A DNA stretch of 64,000 nt. Origin: Raja brachyura. Taxonomy: Eukaryota. The notes under the pieces are model-generated. The model ran no database searches. It had not been told where the DNA came from and was given only the letters and a program-made list of their open reading frames with translations. Location: contig OY740797.1 of assembly GCA_963514005.1 (NCBI GenBank), positions 12,462,001-12,526,000 of the forward strand. The letters run 5' to 3'. The position numbers and the translations under genes are program-made. Shown here one piece after another: positions 10,515 to 51,170 of the stretch. The stretch's first letter is position 1; each line of letters begins with the position of its first letter.

Positions 10515-10862
10515 CTGTCCCTGAATCTGGAAGTGTGCGTTTCCACACTTCTATACCTTTTGCCTGATGGGAGAGGGGAAAAGGGGCTGTGGCCAGTGTG
10601 ACTCATTCTTGATTATGCTGCTGGCTTTGCCGAGGCTGCGTGAGGCATAAAAGGAGTCAATGGAAGTGAGGTTGGTTTGTATGATGGTCTGGGCTGCATC
10701 CACAATTCTCTGCAGTTTCTTGTGGTCTTGGATGGAGCTGTTCCCAAACGATGCTGTGATGCATTCCGGTAAAATACTTTCTTCGACACACCTGTAGAAG
10801 CTGGTGAGAGTTGTTGGGGACCTTCTAAGCCTTCTAAGGAAGTAGAGATGTTGGTGTGCAAT
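10515..10862 (-). mobile_element. Rex1/Babar-type LINE fragment (C-terminal DUF1891-like region)
   Basis: ORF 10551-10931 reads QHLYFLRRLRR..TTLTSFYRCVEESIL..CIT..FGNSS.QD.KKLQRIV.AAQ.II, the characteristic post-RT region of this clade. Confidence 0.85.
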
Positions 10863-11379
10863 TGTATCCTCAACTGTGTCTTTTGTCAAATCATCGTCAC
10901 CTCGATAACAATCCCCACCTTCTGCAGGCACACTAAACCTTCCCTTTTGGAAATGCTTCTAGGATTTTAAGTAATGCAATGGGACCCTCACCAATGGCGA
11001 AAACGCTATCTGGGGCACCAATAATGTTGACTGATTAAAGTAATTATTATATCAAATAAGCTCCAAGATTTGGCGACCTAACCGAATCACTGGGAGAGAG
11101 GGCGGGTGTATTAAGTTTAACTCACTGAGTGTTGGTCACATTGCTATCTGTAAAAGTGTTGTTTTATACAAACATGGCAGTTACTTTTGCTTTAATGAAT
11201 CTCTGGGTAGCATGTTAATCATTCTACATGTCGCAGTTTGAAATGATTCAGGCATGACGAAATGACATATGAATGCAAATTTGCTGCTGCTAGGTATTTG
11301 AAGGGCTTAACAGAACGATGTGAACATGGGAAGCGTGTTCTTTCGCCCTGCCTTACACATCCCTGGGAATGATTCATTC

Positions 11380-11691: not shown

Positions 11692-11754
11692 ATGTCCAAG
11701 TACCACAGGACGCCCGCCAGAACTATGGACAATCTTATCGAAGTGAAGAGCAAG
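11692..11754 (+). CDS. PARD6A: Partitioning defective 6 homolog (alpha-like), coding exon 1
   Basis: accATG; encodes MSKYHRTPARTMDNLIEVKSK (21 codons), then phase-0 donor AAG|GTAGAA. The EVKSK exon end is Par6-diagnostic; RTPAR matches my recollection of the PARD6A N-terminus better than PARD6B/G. Confidence 0.9.
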
Positions 11755-12413: not shown

Positions 12414-12636
12414 TTCGATGCTGAATTCCGAAGATTTGCTCTAAAACGTTCCAACGTCGGGGGTTTTCAGGAATTTTACCAGCTGATTCAAGCCGTCCAT
12501 CAGATCCCGTACGTGGATGTATTGTTAGGATATACCGACATCCACGGGGACTTGCTGCCCATCAACAACGATGACAATTATCACAAAGCGGTCTCCTCTG
12601 CCAACCCTTTACTGAGAGTCATCATTCAGAGACGGG
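12414..12636 (+). CDS. PARD6A: Par6 (alpha-like) coding exon 2, PB1 domain
   Basis: Acceptor tcatttttctcccctcacag|TTC; encodes [74 protein letters not shown]; 223 nt; phase-1 donor G|GTAAGT. Family identity is certain; paralog assignment rests on [19 protein letters not shown]. Confidence 0.93.
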
Positions 12637-14289: not shown

Positions 14290-15061
14290 GTCCCCCAAAA
14301 CTCCCTCCCCTCTTCACCCTTCCTCTTCTTTCCCCTCTCCTCCTCCCCTCCCCCAATCTTTTCCTTTCCCCTACCCTCACACCCTCCCTCCATAACTCCT
14401 CTCCCACTGCCCTCCTCGCCCTCTATTTCCCACTCCCTACCTCCCCCACTCCTCTCCCTCTATTTCCCCCTCCTCCCCCACCAGACATGAGACAGGAAAC
14501 TGAAAAAAGAGGAAGAGATAGATTTCTCCACTGATTTTGAAATTTGGCAAGGCCCCACTGCCGCCGCGAGGCCCCCACCGGGTCGGACGAAGCGGCCGAT
14601 GGCGCCCACGGCTGGGCACCATGGAGGCCGTGAAGTAGGCTTGGCTGCTCGCCACCACAGAGACACCCGCAGTTGCAACTCCAGCCAGTGGCGCGTTAGT
14701 GATGCTCAATCCGCTCCTTCTGCTTTATATTATCCTCGCCGGGCGAGGTGGACTCCGCCCATGATTGACAGCGGACCCGGCCAATCAGTGCGGTGATCGT
14801 GCAGGGAGGGGCGCCGCCATCCTGGTGACTGACAGGAGAGGAGACCAATCTGCGCATGCGCAGTTTTGAAGATTTTTAAACATTAATAACTTTTACAATA
14901 TACCATCAATCGGAACAAAACTTGTTGCCCTTGTAGCACAGGTAAATGGTGAGTAAGGTGGCAAAAAATCGTAGCGTTATCGTGTACTGTTTTTGTGCAA
15001 ATAGAAAAAACCGCAAAACCGGAAGAGCTCAAGATCAGAGTTTTAGTTATGGATAGATAGA
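14290..15061 (-). mobile_element. Second non-autonomous Helitron-like element (3' end apparently truncated)
   Basis: Minus-strand start A|TCTATCTATCCATAACTAAAACTCTGATCTTG, sharing 16 bp with the 3085-3949 element. CpG-rich body and a polypyrimidine tract; no CTRR/hairpin end found. It follows a SINE head at ~14227-14290. Confidence 0.6.
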
Positions 15062-20447: not shown

Positions 20448-21126
20448 GTAGATAAAAATGCTGGAGAAACTCAGCGGGTGAGGCAGCATCCATGGAGCGA
20501 AAGAAAAGGTGACGTTTCGGGTAGAGACCTTTCTTCAGACTGATGTGGAGGTGGGAAGAAGAAAGGAAGAGGCTGGAGGAGCTGGGGAGGGAGAAAGCAA
20601 GGACAACCTGAAATTGGAGAAGTCAATGTTCATACCACTGTGGTGTAAACTACCCAAGCGAAATATGAGGTGCTGCTCCTCCAATTTACGTTGGGATTCA
20701 CTCTGGCCATGGAGGAGGCCCAGGACAGAAAGGTCTGATTCTGAATGGGGGGGGGGGGGGGGTTGAAGTGCTGAGCCACCGGGAGATCAGGTTGGTTATT
20801 GCGAACTGAGCGAAGGTGTTGGGCGAAGCGATCGCCAAGCCTACGCTTGGTGTCACCGATGTAGAGCAGCTGACACCTGCGGATGCAGGTGAACATCTGT
20901 CGCACCTGGAAAAGGCTGCTTGGGTCCTTGGATGGTCAAGGGGGGCGGAGGTAAAGCGACAAGTGTAGCATTTCCTACGGTTGCAAGAGAAAGTACCGGG
21001 GAGGGGGTGGTTTCGGTGGGAAGGGACGAATTGACCAGGGATTTACAGAGGGAGCGGTCTCTGCGGAAAGCCGAATGAGCAGGAGATGGGAAGATGTGGC
21101 AAGTGGTGGGATCCCGTTGGAGGTGA
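20448..21126 (-). mobile_element. Penelope-like retroelement fragment with GIY-YIG endonuclease remnant
   Basis: ORF 20630-20905 reads CIRRCQLLYIGDTKRRLGDRFAQHLRSVRNNQPDLPVAQHFN (C..C..LYIG.T.R.L..R..H). It is contiguous with the abundant short repeat, linking that repeat to PLEs. Confidence 0.9.
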
Positions 21127-21622
21127 CTTATTATTCCATTAATGTTTGGGTGCTAGCTGTGAGCAAATTAACTGCCAGGTTTCTGTCATCGACTAATCCT
21201 CCGATGTAGGCTATAAAGAGAGCTTGTTTAATATTTGCATAACCTAGTTTGTGCTGGGATGATATTTTAAAAGTTTTGTTGTAGCTGCTATGCTGCTTTC
21301 TTAAACTTGTGGGCTAAAATTTCAGCTAGTAAGAACAGTTGTATCAAATACATACACGATGTTCAGGTTTTACAGTTGGGATTGGTGTTTATGTGTGTGG
21401 GGTATCTGCAGAGTTTTAATGTGTTGAAAATTTGTTGATGTCCTTTTTTTACATTTATGGCACGGTACCCCTTTAGGTGTTTGTTTCTGGGAGAAATGGG
21501 TTTTTGTATTTGACATGCAGATTTGGGGGAAATCAAGATTTAACAACATTTCAGACATGCCATGTCTGTCTTAAGATTTTGTTTCCAGTCATGGACTTTT
21601 CATGTATTGATTTATAGCTAAT

Positions 21623-24800: not shown

Positions 24801-27097
24801 CCCACTCTTTTGCTATGTACTACCCAACTCTGGAGTTACTGAATGAAAATCTAGATATATGCTTTGTACTTGGATTTGAAAGATGCATGGAGTAGCTGCC
24901 ATACACTTTATTTTGAATGTTGTAGTTTTCAAGCTGCTGATTCATTCTGAAGATTTCTGGTTTATTCCCAAAGTAATCCACCTACAGCTGGATGCTAGAA
25001 ATTTGCTGGGCAGCTAATAACGAACCACAGGCAGAGCATTTTCAATAGCATTTGGTGTTTGGATAATGCAAAGTAATTTGATCCATCCATCAAAATATTT
25101 TTTTTGCAGAGTGAATGATATTGGAAGCCATTATCACCATTTCCTACAGGTTTGGATGTTTTGAATGCTCTCAGGGGCTCAGTTATTAGACTAAAGTGCA
25201 AACGTTAGACTAGACTAATTTAATAATCCAGACTCTTGTGCAAAGCATGACTTTAGCAGCGAGGTTGTCAAGAGTCACCAAATGAATAATAAGAGCTCTG
25301 GGCCCAGACAAGAAAAGTTGTATATTTCAGTCAGGCCATCAGTACTGGAAGTCTTGTGGAGTGCTATTCAGATTTGAAGGTACATAACCATAATGCAGCC
25401 CCTCATGGATTTGGTACTGATGTAATCCTAGCGCTTTGCTGTAGACAAATGTTTAAAGCTTCACTAGAGTTGGCGAGGAATTAAAAACCAAATACATGAA
25501 TCAAAGATGATGTTGGCAAGACGGACGGATGATGGTCAGAATGGGTTTCGAAGAGGGCTTGGGAGAACTTCAAGGTTTTGAAGGTGAAGCTGGCTGTTGT
25601 GGGCAAAATGGTAGCTAGTCGTGGGTAGAATGGTTAAGTTACTGTGCTGGCAGGTGGAATCTGAACCTTCCCTCAGACACACTGGTTTGATTTTCAAGAT
25701 GGATGTTGCAGAATGTTTAAATAATTCAAAAATCTTTAACTATCTATGAATACAAACAATACAATAATACTTTATTAGCCAAGGAATTTCATTTGCTAAG
25801 TCAGTCGTACAAATAAAAAGCAGCGGAACACACAAAATACATTCTACAAACACCACTTCCTCTCTAATGTACATCAGGAAAGAAACTATATCTTTACCCA
25901 GTTTGGCCTGTGTGACTCTAACTAGGATCTATACAAGGGTACTGCTTGTGTGGAGGGAGCAATTGAATTGACCCTGGTCATTGTACCATAGTGACTGACA
26001 AAATGTATGCAGGCAGTCCAAATTAAATGTGGGTGGCTAGAGCTTTGAGGCAGCAGCCTTAAAACATTTACAATAAATCTGGGATTGACATTTTTGATCT
26101 TGTTACTATGAAATGTTCATGGCATTAAGATTTAATTGCTGTATTTAGAATTCAAAGAGGTACTTTGATATCGGTGCGTGACATAAAATATGTTAATGAC
26201 AAATACTAGAACTTTATCAAATATCATAGACATGGAGTGCTCGTTAAGCTTTTACTTGGTTAATGCAATTAAAATGTTAAATAAAAGAGGATAATGTGCA
26301 GGTGTAATATTTTCAACACTTGGTTAGTTTAATATCAGGACATTATATAATTGACATTTTATGAAAGGCTTCGTGTTTATACTGCCTACAAACTGCTCAG
26401 CATGTATGTGATGTATCTATTATAATTGTAAATGATCTTTCAACTTGACGACAATTCAATTAGAGTGTCTAATTTTTTTTTCTAGCTAGTATAGTATTGT
26501 GATGCTTTTTCCTGAGTACTGACTTGAGTTATGAAAGCACCCTGCCTCAACTTGCCGTATCCAGCTTCACCTGGTCGTTTTCTTGTGTATGGCGTCCACA
26601 GCCTAAAGTTGTTCAATTTGATCTTATTTGATTGTGCACATCAGGCTGATTGCATTTGTGGAAACGGGGCAGACCACATGAAGGTTGCAATCTCCCACCC
26701 CAAGCTTCATCTGGTGTACAGCTGTTTGTTTCCCAGCTCTGAAGTATCTGCCTGGTGTCTTTTCGATGCTGGCTCCAACTACTGAATGGTCTGGTTAATG
26801 GGTAAAGACAAGGAGTGCAGCCCAGTGCCAGATTTCTGGCAGACAAGCTGCATTGAAATATGTGATCTGGAAAAAATGCTCTTGAACTCTTGTTGTTAGG
26901 ACACCTTACTTTATTGTGAAGATTAATTTCCTTGCAGATATTTAAAATTATTTTTCGGTGCATGTGACATTTGGGTCGAAGTTTAAATCCCGTGCTGCAA
27001 TGTATTATTCTAAAAAAAAAACTGCTTCCATTTAAAATGTTTATTGCAGACAGAACAAAATTTGTGGAAGATTCTTTATTGGTTTAATAGTTTAAGA

Positions 27098-27636
27098 GTA
27101 TGGTGTACAATTTTGGTCGCCTAATTATAGGAAGGATGTCAACAAAATAGAGAGAGTACAGAGGAGATTCACTAGAATGTTGCCTGGGTTCCAGCAACTA
27201 AGTTACAGAGAAAGGTTGAACAAGTTAGGTCTTTATTCTTTGGAGCGCAGAAGGTTAAGGGGGGACTTGATTGAGGTCTTTAAAATGATGAAAGGGATAG
27301 ACAGAGTTGACGTGGATAAGCTTTTCCCATTGAGGGTAGGAAAGATTCAAACAAGAGGGCATGACATGAGAATTAAGGGACAGAAGTTTAGGGGTAACAT
27401 GAGGGGGAACTTCTTTACTCTGAGAGTGGTAGCTGTGTGGAATGATCTTCCTGCAGAAGTGGTGGAGGCAGGATCGATTTTAACATTTAAAAGTAAAGTG
27501 TATAGGTACATGGAAGGGAATGGAGAGGGTATGGTCTGAGTGCAGGTAGATGGGACTAGGGGAAAATAAATGGTCGGCACGGACTGGAAGGGCCGAGAGG
27601 GCCTGTTTCCGTGCTGTAATTGTTATATGGTTATAT
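27098..27636 (+). mobile_element. Young CR1 LINE 3' end
   Basis: ORF 27177-27539 reads MLPGFQQLSYRERLNKLGLYSLERRRLRGDLIEVFKMMKG...TRGH...FFTLRVVAVWNDLP; tail gcctgtttccgtgctgtaa. Confidence 0.95.
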
Positions 27637-46320: not shown

Positions 46321-46828
46321 CAATAGACAATAGGTGCAGGAGTAGGCCATTCGGCCCTTCAAGCCAGCACCGTCATTCAATGTGATCATGGCTGATCATC
46401 CCCAATCAGTACCCCGTTCCTGCCTTCTCCCCATATCCCCTGACTCCACTATCTGTAAGAGCCCTATCTAGCTCTCTCTTGAAAGTATACAGAGAACTGG
46501 CCTCCACCGCCCTCTGAGGCAGAGAATTCCATGGACTCGCAACTCTCTGAGAGAAAAAAGTTTCCTCGTCTCCGTTCTAAATAGCTTACCCCTTATTCTT
46601 AACCTGTGGCCCCTGGTTCTGGACTCCCCCAACATCAGGAACCCGTTTCCTGCCTCTAGTGTGTCCAAACCCTTAATAATCGTATATGTTTCAATAAGAT
46701 TCCCTCTCACCCTTCTAAACTCCAGAATATACAAGCCCAGCCGCTCCATTCTCTTAGCATATGACAGTCCCGCCATCCCGGGAATTAACCTTGTAAACCT
46801 ACACTGCACTCCCTCAATAGCAAGAATG
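46321..46828 (-). mobile_element. Young CR1 LINE 3' end with (CAATAGA)n tail
   Basis: ORF 46468-46869 reads ILAIEGVQCRFTRLIPGMAGLSY..RMERLGLY.LEFRR.RG.LIETY.IIKGLD...SRTRGH.LRIRG. Confidence 0.93.
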
Positions 46829-48262
46829 ACCAGGTTCAGTTGCCTGGTCATTGATGCCTGACAGACCATGAGTTTTATGCCAGGTCAAGTGCATTGGTGA
46901 ATTTTATTGATGTCTGCCTTCACCTGAGAGGTGCGTCTACCATAGGGGAAATGGTACCATTGTCTTTTTTTTTAATTGTTAGAGGACTATGTGATGCAGC
47001 TGGGGAAAGGTGTTATTTCAGAAGTATTAGCAGTACATCTTAATTATTTTAACATATTAAATGAATTTATTAGTTACTGTAGAGTCTTCCACTAATTCTA
47101 TTCTAACTGTACATATCCTCCATCTAAACTAATCCTTTGAAGAAAATAGTGCCATTACTCATGAGAGTCAATGGTGACTAGTATACAGTGTAGCTGAAAC
47201 TGTTTTGAATCCAGGGTACTAAATTGTAAAGAAAAAGCTCTTTTAACATTTGTTTCCTGTCTGTGCTGCTGGCTATTGTGTAACCAGCAACAATGCTGAA
47301 GAGTTGAACAATCAGGCAGCTATATGAGAGTTGCTCTTTTAGCAAGAAAGGTAAATGCTGTAAATTTGAGCCATTGCTGGGGTATTTTTGGTCCAGAAAA
47401 GCATGATACTTCAGGAGGTAAAATAGGCTTAAAATTAAGACTGCCAAATGAGATTTAAACGACCTAAAAACTTGCTTGCACAGATGAATTCTTGAGGGAA
47501 GGGTGGTGAAGTAGAAGATTGCTTGGGGAATTCCACAACAAACACCAGGCTGTGGTGAGATAGCAACAATGGAAGAAAGGGAGTAAGGAATGCACGAAAG
47601 TTGAGTTATACAGTGTTTGGGCAGGAAGTTGAAAATAATTTTGTGCAATGGGGTGGGTTGGACCAAAGGTCATAGAGCGGTGCAAGATGCTCCACTCCTA
47701 CGTAATCCAACGCACTGAGGTGTAGTACGTAACGGAGCGTCACGGCCTCCATCTTTCAATGCAAAACACGACTTGCGTTATGCCTCTCACAGTGTAATCC
47801 GTGTTGTTGGGGAACAGTGTGTGATGTAGCTCATCTATCACTTCACATATTTTAGTTAATTTTATTTTTAAATGTTTTCCCCCTGCTTAATCTATATTTC
47901 TGGCCATTTCATTCCCATTCTTCCTCCCCAGCCCCCTCCTTATGCAGTTTCCCTAGTATTGCTTTAGCACGCATTGTGCACAAAATAAATATATGTGTGT
48001 GTATGTGTATAAGCTAAACAGCACATAAAGATATGACATATGGGGTCAAATTTCAAATTCCTTGACAAGCACTTTATTGGGTTCATGACTAACATAGTAT
48101 CAACAACAAATATAAGAAAAGATAGCACATTGACGGCAAGTCTCCGAAAATAGCATCAGACTACACAAATACATTTTGTGTAACAGTTGTCGCGTGGTGT
48201 CCACCAGAGACCTGGTTGGCACAGTAAGTGCACATATTTCTTATTCCTTTCTATGTTTATGA

Positions 48263-48801
48263 CAGGCACTTGCCGTGAGCAATTAGTCAGGGTAGGCAGT
48301 CAGTATCTTTGGTCAGTCGGCTTTTAAAGCAAATCTTGAAAACCGCGCATGCGCAGATTGTTCTCTCCCCGGTGAGCTGTCAGTTGGCTTTTAAAGGAAA
48401 CTTGCGCTGCACACGCACATGAGCAGTGCGCTGCGCAGCACATGCATGTAGTTCATGTTGTAAAGGCAGAATTTCAACTGCCTTTATGGACCGTTGCCAC
48501 TGACAGCTTGAAGCAGCGTAGACGGCTTCCGCTTGGTAAATGTACTGCGGATGAAAGGCATGGGAGAATTATGCCTACCTAAGAGATCGATCTCTTTTAT
48601 TTGATTATAAAAATTGATTATAATGACATACCTGCAGAATGGATGATATTTCACTTAAGTGCAATTGTTTTTAGTTGTGGGGAGAGACCTGTAAATTGAA
48701 GATGCATTTTGCCGTTACTATTTATACTTAATAGTTACCATTTTATAATTTTATTCAGGGTAGGCACTGCCTACCTTGCCTACCCTGACGGCACTGGCCT
48801 G
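48263..48801. mobile_element. hAT-like MITE nested in the P-like element
   Basis: Termini CAGGCACTTGCCGT / ACGGCACTGGCCTG (11/14 complementary), subterminal AGGGTAGGCA repeats at both ends, flanks GTTTATGA / ATTGATGA (6/8, putative 8-bp TSD). Confidence 0.55.
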
Positions 48802-49254
48802 ATTGATGAATACCACATGGAACAATAACATTGCAAACACCATTTCCACTTAATTCACCTGATCATGTAGTAGAATACTGCATCCATCTGAGTGGACACC
48901 GCATGTGATCTAAACGGTACATTACCTTATGGATCTGAGTGCCATAGATGGCTGATGAGACAGTGTGTTGCCAAATTGCAGATCGGCTCAGTTTCTTAGT
49001 TTTGATGACCAATATTATGTAAACAATTTACGATATAGATGTATATGTACAAGGAAAAAACTTATTTCCGTTATTCATGGCAATATTTACATAATTTACG
49101 TTTTGTGTGCTAGATATAGAGGGTTGCAGTATTTTGCATATCAGCTAACCAATGAAAGTGATGTAAAATTCAACAGATTTTAAACAATGATAGCCCCACC
49201 CCTTGCTTACCCCAAAGGACAAAATTTCCAACTATTATACAATAATAAATAAAT

Positions 49255-49509
49255 CGTCATTTGCACAATTTTGTGTGGGTAACGGGAAGTTCTCATTCTT
49301 CCTCTTGAGTGACCTGCGTTTGGAAAACAGACGTATCGACGGGTTAGGGATGTCAAATAGCGTTGGAACTGCATTCCAATTTAGCCTGTTATTGGTCTGT
49401 CTGTTGGAAAACTGGTCAAGTTCAGTGTTCAGAACAAAGAGAGCAGGTGTTTGACAAGTACACCGGAGTTCAGTGTAGTTCTTGAGTATTCTGGACCCGC
49501 TGTCGACAT
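49255..49509 (-). pseudogene. THAP domain remnant, exon 2
   Basis: Acceptor ttttctgtaatttcag|A; then CRQRVQNTQELH*TPVYLSNTCSLCSEH-[frameshift]-ELDQFSNRQTNNRLNWNAVPTLFDIPNP...KRRSLKRK. Contains LCSEH(F) and the AVPTLF box (49355-49372). Confidence 0.85.
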
Positions 49510-49808
49510 CTGAAATTACAGAAAATATCATATAGGATTAACTAATAAGAAAAAAATTGATTATAATGACATACCTGCAGAATGGATGATATTTCACTTA
49601 AGTGCAATTGTTTTCAGTTGTGGGGAGAGACCTGTATATTGAAGATGCATTTTGCCACTAATATGTCAATTTACCTTAAATATAGAAGAGCTTATTAAAA
49701 TCTTCTTACATAGACCATTTAAGTATTTTCTTTCTATCCTCTTTTGGACCTAAGACACTAGCAGGGCTGCCAACTCTCAGGCAGAGAGAGCGACGGGGGG
49801 GGGGGGGG

Positions 49809-50270
49809 GGCAGATAGGGCAGAGGCAGAGAGAGAGGCAGATAGGGCAGAGGCAGAGAGAGAGGCAGATAGGGCAGAGGCAGAGAGAGAGAGGCAGATAG
49901 GGCAGAGGCAGAGAGAGAGAGGCAGATAGGGCAGAGGCAGAGAGAGAGAGGCAGATAGGGCAGAGGCAGCGAGAGAGGCAGATAGGGCAGAGGCAGAGAG
50001 AGAGGCAGATAGGGCAGAGGCAGAGAGAGGCAGATAGGGCAGAGGCAGAGAGAGAGGCAGATAGGGCAGAGGCAGAGAGAGAGGCAGATAGGGCAGAGGC
50101 AGAGAGAGAGGGAGGCAGATAGGGCAGAGGCAGAGAGGGAGGCAGATAGGGCAGAGGCAGAGGCAGATAGGGCAGAGACAGAGGGAGAGGCAGATAGGGC
50201 AGAGACAGAGGGAGAGGCAGATAGGGCAGAGACAGAGAGAGAGGGGCAGATAGGGCAGAGACAGACAGAG
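49809..50270. repeat. Purine-rich minisatellite (GGCAGATAGGGCAGAGGCA(GA)n) in the THAP intron
   Basis: Many tandem ~25-31-bp units are visible; they explain the low-complexity ORFs 49706-50329 and 49777-50409. Confidence 0.95.
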
Positions 50271-50716
50271 AGGAACAACGGAACGTTATAACGCGCAGCC
50301 GTCCCATTCTGACCGCCGCTGATCCCCACCGCACCATTGCACCCTTCTTCACGGCGGCCCAGTGATGTCTCGGCTTTGACAATTCGAGGGATCTAACCGT
50401 TATCAACACTAAGAGCAGCCCCGGTCCGCCGCGCTCCCCGACTCGAATCTGAGCTTGAAAAATCTCATGATGGCCTGATGTGTCCCGCAGGCCATATTAT
50501 GGAGACTCCTGCCTTACAAGAACAAAAACTAAAATGTACAGAAGTACAAAAATTGATGACTTTATTATTGTGGTAAGTGTAGATCTATTAAAAAAAAATC
50601 TAATAACTTTCTAATGTACCGACAAGCCTAGTTTCCCAATGACCGTTGATGGTGGAACAGAAAATAACATTTTCAGAACAGAATAACATCGACTGAAAAC
50701 AATAATATTTCCTCGC

Positions 50717-50804
50717 CTTTTATGTTATTTGGGAACCTGAAGAGAGGCGGGCAGGGTCCTCTACATTGGCGATTAGAGTAATTTATAGCAGAACAGTCAG
50801 CTGT
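50717..50804 (-). pseudogene. THAP domain remnant, exon 1
   Basis: Reads (T)ADCSAINYSNRQCRGPCPPLFRFPNNIK, matching the THAP N-terminus C.A.NC.N.......FRFP with the second Cys changed to Tyr and no ATG. It is followed by a donor-like AG|GCGAGG and starts ~120 bp inside the right TIR. Confidence 0.75.
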
Positions 50805-50980
50805 AGATGTCGACGCTATGACAGTATCGAGGCAGCCCAGTAAAATGACGCTAACAATCACCCATGATGTACTACGCTTTTTTTCGCCGAATGTCGTATC
50901 TTGCTCCGCTCTATGATCTTTGGGTTGGATTAGAGTATTAATGTAGGAGTGATGACAAAATAACTGGCCTTTAGGGTAAG

Positions 50981-51170
50981 GGCACAAAGTGCTGGAGTAA
51001 CTCAGCTGGTCAGGCAGCATTCTGGAGAATGTAGATAGGTGATGTTTTGGGAAGGGATCCTTCTTCAGACCCAAAATGTCACCTATCCATGTTCTCCAGA
51101 GATGCTGCCTGACCTGCAAAGTTACTCTGGCACTTTGTCCATTGTCTATTAACCAGCATCTGTTGTTCTT
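50981..51170. mobile_element. Fold-back pair of Penelope-derived short repeats
   Basis: caaagtgctggagtaa..ggtcaggcagcattctggagaatgtagataggtgatgttttggg pairs with cccaaaatgtcacctatccatgttctccagagatgctgcctgacc..gttactctggcactttg. Confidence 0.8.

Follow-up and report, generated by a model that had tools for sequence, protein, structure and literature searches.

A dead, THAP-bearing transposon, very probably of the P superfamily, in a likely Par6 intron of the skate Raja brachyura

We analysed a 64,000-nucleotide stretch of the skate Raja brachyura (assembly GCA_963514005.1, contig OY740797.1, positions 12,462,001 to 12,526,000 of the forward strand; hereafter the window, whose numbering is used throughout), in which a first-pass annotation had proposed a P-element-like transposon. 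The element spans 47664-50922 (3.26 kb), carries the remains of a THAP-domain gene on the minus strand, antisense to the host gene Par6, and is very probably a dead, non-autonomous member of the P superfamily. Its 3' terminal inverted repeat (TIR; 47664-47688, minus strand) begins CAAAG, in agreement with the P terminal consensus YARNG given in the accessible sections of the medaka report (PMC2820524), and the inverted match to it, the 5' TIR, lies at 50898-50922 on the same strand. The two repeats are identical at 23/25 positions (16/17, 25/30 and 28/34 at other lengths) and the termini read CA...TG. The flanking target-site duplication (TSD) consists of a left copy, GGTTGGAC, at 47656-47663 and a right copy, GGTTGGAT, at 50923-50930 (both plus strand), which agree at 7 of 8 bases. 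The TIR pattern is present twice in the window, at the two element ends, with no third occurrence within the 64 kb. Ten sequences resampled from the window by a first-order Markov model contained no inverted pair of at least 23/25, compared with 149 overlapping pairs, mostly other repeats, in the real window; among these 149, the 47664/50922 pair alone has flanks matching at 7/8, and three others reach 6/8. The 25-bp repeats and the CA...TG termini therefore stand as annotated, at the exact positions. Within the first 80 bases inside the element, the 7-mers GTAGTAC and AGCGTCA occur inverted at similar offsets from both ends, and are possible candidates for transposase-binding sites.

The gene begins close to the right end. 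A 5' untranslated region (50820-50897, minus strand, as for all gene parts below) shows weak similarity, up to 50888, to the read-through N-termini of two Leucoraja gene models. It is followed by the remnant of THAP exon 1 (50717-50819), in which the start codon position, 103 bp from the element end, reads ATA, the second zinc-ligand Cys reads Tyr, and the phase is one base short of that of the relatives. Intron 1, found at 49510-50716 as annotated, has a GC donor and an AG acceptor and is enlarged by a nested insert. The exon 2 remnant (49275-49509) covers the second half of the THAP domain, the AVPT box and a basic patch; it has lost the conserved Trp and shows a 3-codon deletion, an in-frame stop at 49472-49470 and a frameshift near 49424. 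Similarity to relatives stops near 49275, everything after exon 2 being lost, and the 3' non-coding body (47689-48254), with a CpG-rich subterminal region of ~150 bp, holds no transposase remnant. The annotation had described two minus-strand THAP remnants; they are present, in three frame pieces instead of two, which are 53-78% identical to skate THAP proteins. The Pfam THAP model was matched by 0/3 of these pieces when scanned alone, whereas the relatives exceed its cut-off and a profile built from six of them matches all three pieces (E 1e-8, 7e-10 and 5e-23).

With no start codon, a zinc ligand and the Trp lost, one stop, a 3-codon deletion, two frameshifts and a GC donor in total, the window copy is dead and, to judge from its sequence, cannot encode a working protein. 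Remnants of the linker, helix-turn-helix (HTH) and core were sought by tblastn and profile in the element and in the whole window, and none was convincing; the best tblastn match in this search (E 0.065) paired the HTH of a skate relative, P0007, introduced below, with a frame overlapping exon 2, and was regarded as chance. These searches agree with the annotation in recognising no surviving catalytic domain, and no intact transposase gene lies between the TIRs, the core having left no remnant and the THAP exons being disabled.

Two Par6 exons lie upstream: coding exon 1 (11692-11754, plus strand), located with a motif search, and exon 2, which encodes the PB1 domain (12414-12636, plus strand); the paralogue scores were 112 bits for beta and 106 bits for alpha. 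Neither motif searches nor the open reading frames of at least 90 codons revealed an exon 3 within the window. From exons 1 and 2, the annotated placement in Par6 intron 2 is likely.

The superfamily assignment is made through relatives. A search with the exon-2 piece matched 8 proteins among 10 candidates, six of the eight being skate gene models, 73-81% identical. The Amblyraja protein XP_032888325.1 (P0007) passes from THAP into the Tnp_P_element HTH (E 1.3e-4, 22.7 bits, just below the cut-off of 23), which is found above the cut-off in P0016, P0017 and P0019. The P0007 C-terminus is in turn identical to P0013 at 75/102 positions (74%) and to P0014 at 75/98 (77%), and these two proteins each hold all four P Pfam domains, namely Tnp_P_element, the two halves of RNase H and the GTP-binding insertion. 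P0013 has the Drosophila transposase 6P5A as its sole PDB match (E 3.4e-43), with the D/D/E positions aligned. A P-type transposase with HTH, RNase H DDE core and GTP-binding insertion is therefore present in overlap-linked relatives and deleted in the window copy. The window piece groups with these proteins in a starred clade (97/99 and 100/99 in two trees), and a quick core tree unites P0013, P0014, P0165, two Amblyraja fragments and a Priapulus fragment in one starred group (96), in an alignment where named rows fill only 10-16% of columns. P0165 represents a cluster of 32 members, of which the 15 listed are all 677 aa long and 98-99% identical; its core is uninterrupted and 64% identical to that of P0013, the residues next to the second catalytic Asp are changed, and it may be a recent copy or a domesticated one.

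A domain scan of relatives, of the kind that the annotation had suggested for longer copies, covered 57 of the top 58 proteins (from 150 listed) and detected a P domain (E<=0.001) in 41/57, and a hAT, Harbinger or Kolobok domain in 0/57. The proposal of a deletion derivative of a P-superfamily element is upheld, relatives passing from THAP into the P HTH and P cores. Seven Amblyraja models lie on contigs of seven different lengths and the Leucoraja models on five contigs, which indicates a dispersed family. The named cartilaginous-fish relatives come from skates only (Amblyraja radiata and Leucoraja erinacea), so that the term chondrichthyan family, used in the annotation, is wider than the evidence.

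Among the 1.84 billion representatives searched, the best non-skate match of P0007 is XP_014671368.1 (P0016) of Priapulus caudatus, an annotated gene model rather than a described transposon, truncated after the HTH and situated on a 188,746-base contig. The two proteins are identical at 202/281 positions over THAP, linker and P HTH; P0016 is 68-76% identical to the skate copies, with 72-76% for one of them, and 65% to the window piece. Other members, from Diadema, Myxine, Gymnothorax and Dunckerocampus, are 47-53% identical; together with the skate and Priapulus members and the window piece they form one starred clade, whose next relatives are ~34% identical. In the fast-evolving linker, P0007 is 68% identical to Priapulus, compared with 52-62% for the remaining skate subfamilies and 27-30% across the hagfish, teleost and sea urchin members, the hagfish and teleosts giving 28-30%. 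Vertical descent is disfavoured, since over the protostome-deuterostome split it would not have preserved a linker already lost in the vertebrate members. To judge from these comparisons, the skate family and the Priapulus element are probably linked by horizontal transfer, either direct or via unsampled marine hosts.

The alternative to transfer, which bears on the family history only, is that the skate-Priapulus likeness comes from a contaminated Priapulus assembly or from ancient vertical paralogy. The length of the Priapulus contig, an identity to the skate copies that is not near-identity, and a linker closer to P0007 than those of other skate subfamilies all speak against it, as does the rejection of jawed-vertebrate monophyly (p-AU, the p value of the approximately unbiased test, 0.015 and 0.009). 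Other tests leave it more room: vertebrate monophyly is marginally rejected (p-AU 0.046, 0.046 and 0.072), the value for the deuterostome members is 0.051, skate monophyly is not rejected, and the branch joining Priapulus to the skates, with supports of 89/90 and 88/93, is unstarred. The tested groups were named only after the first tree had been seen; the first topology-test tree left out P0005, P0022, P0033 and most unnamed rows of the larger tree, and the second set additionally omitted P0006, P0284 and the row of the window piece, one of its runs omitting Diadema as well. In addition, the comparison covers a single Priapulus protein and members of the transposon family only. The usual mark of horizontal transfer is a synonymous divergence below that of host genes (PMC7070016, in its accessible portion); the protein-level proxy for it points towards transfer. 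The trees thus support transfer moderately (p 0.009-0.07), and descent or contamination without transfer appears unlikely, while retaining a real share of the probability.

P0007 and the THAP part of the Leucoraja protein P0008 are 95% identical, which suggests that the family was active before the Amblyraja-Leucoraja split. On balance we lean towards a broader history, in which a P lineage separate from THAP9 and Pdre crossed between phyla in the sea, entering skates from a priapulid, passing from skates to one or spreading in parallel with one. The same lineage would be represented by earlier branches in hagfish, moray, pipefish and sea urchin, would have multiplied in skates before the Amblyraja-Leucoraja split, and would have kept uninterrupted cores in P0013, P0014 and P0165.

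Several points weigh against the identification of the element itself. If the ends are shifted outward by one base, the flanks become a perfect 6-bp duplication and the termini CC...GG; the annotation had overlooked this arrangement when it proposed an 8-bp TSD, which does match at 7/8 (P elements have 8 bp, 7-8 in the criterion applied) and whose reading consequently rests in part on the family assignment. Both the TIRs and the TSD length come from one insertion. The window THAP is short and only 60-71% identical to skate relatives, and a catalytic remnant is absent from the window (best tblastn E 0.17, best profile independent E value 2). The 41/57 count is biased, because the query already held the P HTH, and no single family protein runs from THAP to the C-terminus, so that the link is a chain of overlaps. 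This chain of close overlaps is nevertheless a stronger argument for P than the count.

A composite origin is an alternative, in which the outer TIRs would belong to another family, possibly one making 6-bp duplications, which had picked up the 5' portion of a P element. The perfect 6/6 flanks with ends out by one base would fit such a history, as would the patchwork of nested inserts and an internal duplicate; moreover, the P0008 read-through contains no clear TIR. On the other hand, CA...TG and CAAAG agree with the P consensus, as set out in the available text of PMC2820524. The start codon site lies only 103 bp from the end, the similarity of the 5' untranslated region to another copy ends at 50888, ten bases short of the TIR, and a 25-34 bp TIR is in keeping with P elements (27-31 bp in Anopheles). 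A composite is accordingly improbable, and we retain a P element with its own ends.

The annotation had itself raised a THAP-bearing hAT of the THAP12/PRKRIR type, and hATs likewise make 8-bp duplications. Several relatives are automatically named '52 kDa repressor of the inhibitor of the protein kinase-like', but such names rest on the THAP domain alone and one bearer, P0016, continues into Tnp_P_element. Ends that we take to be hAT-like do occur inside the element; they belong to nested inserts and not to its outer boundary. Since hAT domains were found in 0/8 and 0/4 proteins of two smaller scanned sets, as well as in 0/57 of the larger one, the hAT alternative is refuted at the protein level and keeps only a very slim chance. 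Slimmer still is a domesticated THAP host gene or an exon used by Par6: relatives do occur in gene models fused to host domains (P0011 and P0012, THAP with B-box and TRIM coiled coil), but in the window copy the start codon, one zinc ligand and the conserved Trp are gone, the frame is broken by a stop and two frameshifts, and the orientation is opposite to that of Par6. Kolobok elements, with TTAA duplications and a Kolobok transposase, and Harbinger/ISL2EU elements, with 2-3 bp duplications and a DDE_Tnp_4 transposase, were both rejected, as the flanks are not TTAA and match at 0/2 and 1/3, the relatives carry P domains, and no Harbinger-type domain is found in the 57 scanned relatives.

As a P element, the skate copy has close company. 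The annotation had held vertebrate P elements to be mainly THAP9 and Pdre, a view contradicted by Izanagi of medaka, which has the same anatomy: in the available sections of its description (PMC2820524) it is non-autonomous, with a 27-bp TIR, a CA start conforming to YARNG, an 8-bp TSD and a degenerate multi-exon THAP gene that lacks a transposase and is broken by a nested insert. The architecture is therefore not new, Izanagi being a close published precedent. According to the same sections, Izanagi differs in having its own TIR sequence, in its size (1.3 kb against 3.26 kb here) and in its teleost host, and many Izanagi copies with TSDs are shown, in contrast to one copy of the skate element. 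Zebrafish Pdre2/THAP9 likewise combines CA...TG ends, an 8-bp TSD, a THAP domain and internally deleted copies (bioRxiv 10.1101/2024.03.22.586318, PMC7776569, as far as their accessible text goes); its 13-bp TIRs, however, are unrelated, with only the first CA in common, and its 12-bp subterminal repeats are distant (bioRxiv 10.1101/2024.03.22.586318, same portion). The ends of the skate element do not have the Pdre-type 13-bp TIR. No named THAP9 turns up in the top 120 of the 484 P0013 relatives, most of them unnamed, while gastropod (Batillaria) transposases do, a hint only that the skate lineage may be separate from THAP9. With the Drosophila P transposase (6P5A) the family shares the HTH, the RNase H D/D/E and the GTP-binding insertion, all in P0013, and the 8-bp TSD; the sequences are remote, the Drosophila TIR is 31 bp long (PMC3698922, in the part available) and the window copy is without a core.

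The relatives show that the parent gene encoded THAP, a linker of ~110 residues, the P HTH, an RNase H core with an acidic catalytic triad, and the GTP-binding insertion. If Drosophila P biology, as laid out in the accessible parts of PMC7776569 and PMC3698922, is a guide, the THAP domain would have bound subterminal DNA. By the same analogy, the GTP-dependent core would have cut at the TIRs and joined the ends to the target with an 8-bp stagger. The copy may have arrived whole and then suffered deletion, or have moved in trans after internal deletion. After insertion it would have taken up two inserts, presumably hAT-like, and then decayed.

The window copy itself is an ordinary dead transposon of known architecture. 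It supplies both ends and the TSD of a P family for which our searches turned up no description in cartilaginous fish, which are poor in DNA transposons according to the sections available of PMC4350176 and PMC6817897; the elephant shark is reported as such (PMC4350176, PMC5381603, PMC6817897) with a P content of 0 (PMC6817897, Table S5), again as far as the accessible text extends. In literature listings and abstract openings, a scope outside which most subscription journals lie, no paper was found that deals with P elements in skates or sharks or with skate-Priapulus transfer, and a term search of the available text of PMC10824691 did not find the shark, skate or fish terms. If the Priapulus link is true, an intron-bearing P element was transferred between ecdysozoan and vertebrate lineages; the P-element transfers described in the accessible portions of the P papers cited here are between insects. 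From the uninterrupted cores, it may be possible to recover an active P transposase belonging to a lineage that invades vertebrates. Because zebrafish THAP9 shows excision but no integration (bioRxiv 10.1101/2024.03.22.586318, as far as available), a lineage with such cores and known ends would open another way of testing P transposition in vertebrate cells.

Some skate gene models join family THAP sequences to other domains. In the Leucoraja erinacea models P0011 and P0012, the family THAP and linker continue into a B-box and a TRIM coiled coil, either through exon capture by a TRIM gene or as a gene-model artefact. The THAP part of P0008 (Leucoraja erinacea LOC129702495) is followed by a coiled-coil C-terminus, for which Pfam coiled coils stayed under the cut-off and Atlas bacterial matches under 0.9; its resemblance to the end of a MORC protein is our own impression, confirmed by neither Pfam nor Atlas. 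A TIR read-through in the P0008 N-terminus was not convincing. THAP exons may thus have been spliced into skate host genes, as these TRIM-like and coiled-coil models suggest.

Two inserts are nested in the element. A MITE-like (miniature inverted-repeat transposable element) insert of 539 bp (48263-48801) has imperfect 14-bp inverted ends (11/14), which we take to be hAT/Tip100-like, and 8-bp flanks matching at 6/8. Inside it, 48609-48730 is a 122-bp duplicate (93%) of the intron-1 stretch 49552-49673, representing either captured neighbouring DNA or a local duplication. The duplicated intron stretch also occurs in the Leucoraja model P0022, which shares 49675-49600 of intron 1; a family intron 1 of only ~163 bp is on this account one possibility, the P0022 stretch representing either read-through or a small exon of the gene prediction. 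A 35-bp part of the MITE-like insert (48331-48365) reappears (91%) at 14841-14875, in another CpG-rich repeat. The second insert, of ~750 bp, lies in intron 1 (49762-50511), has ends that are presumably hAT-like, with no matching flanks found, and contains a 27-bp purine-rich minisatellite of 17 copies with 91% matches (49809-50273).

Elsewhere in the window, an Rfam scan gave 0 matches. Just right of the element, 50984-51138 holds a short repeat with fold-back arms, found at about a dozen other places in the window and, we assume, probably a common tail of short or long interspersed nuclear elements (SINE/LINE). Finally, decayed reading frames at 27096-27536, 46471-46884, 10554-10958 and 20633-21152 have the look of what we take to be LINE or Penelope-type retrotransposons.

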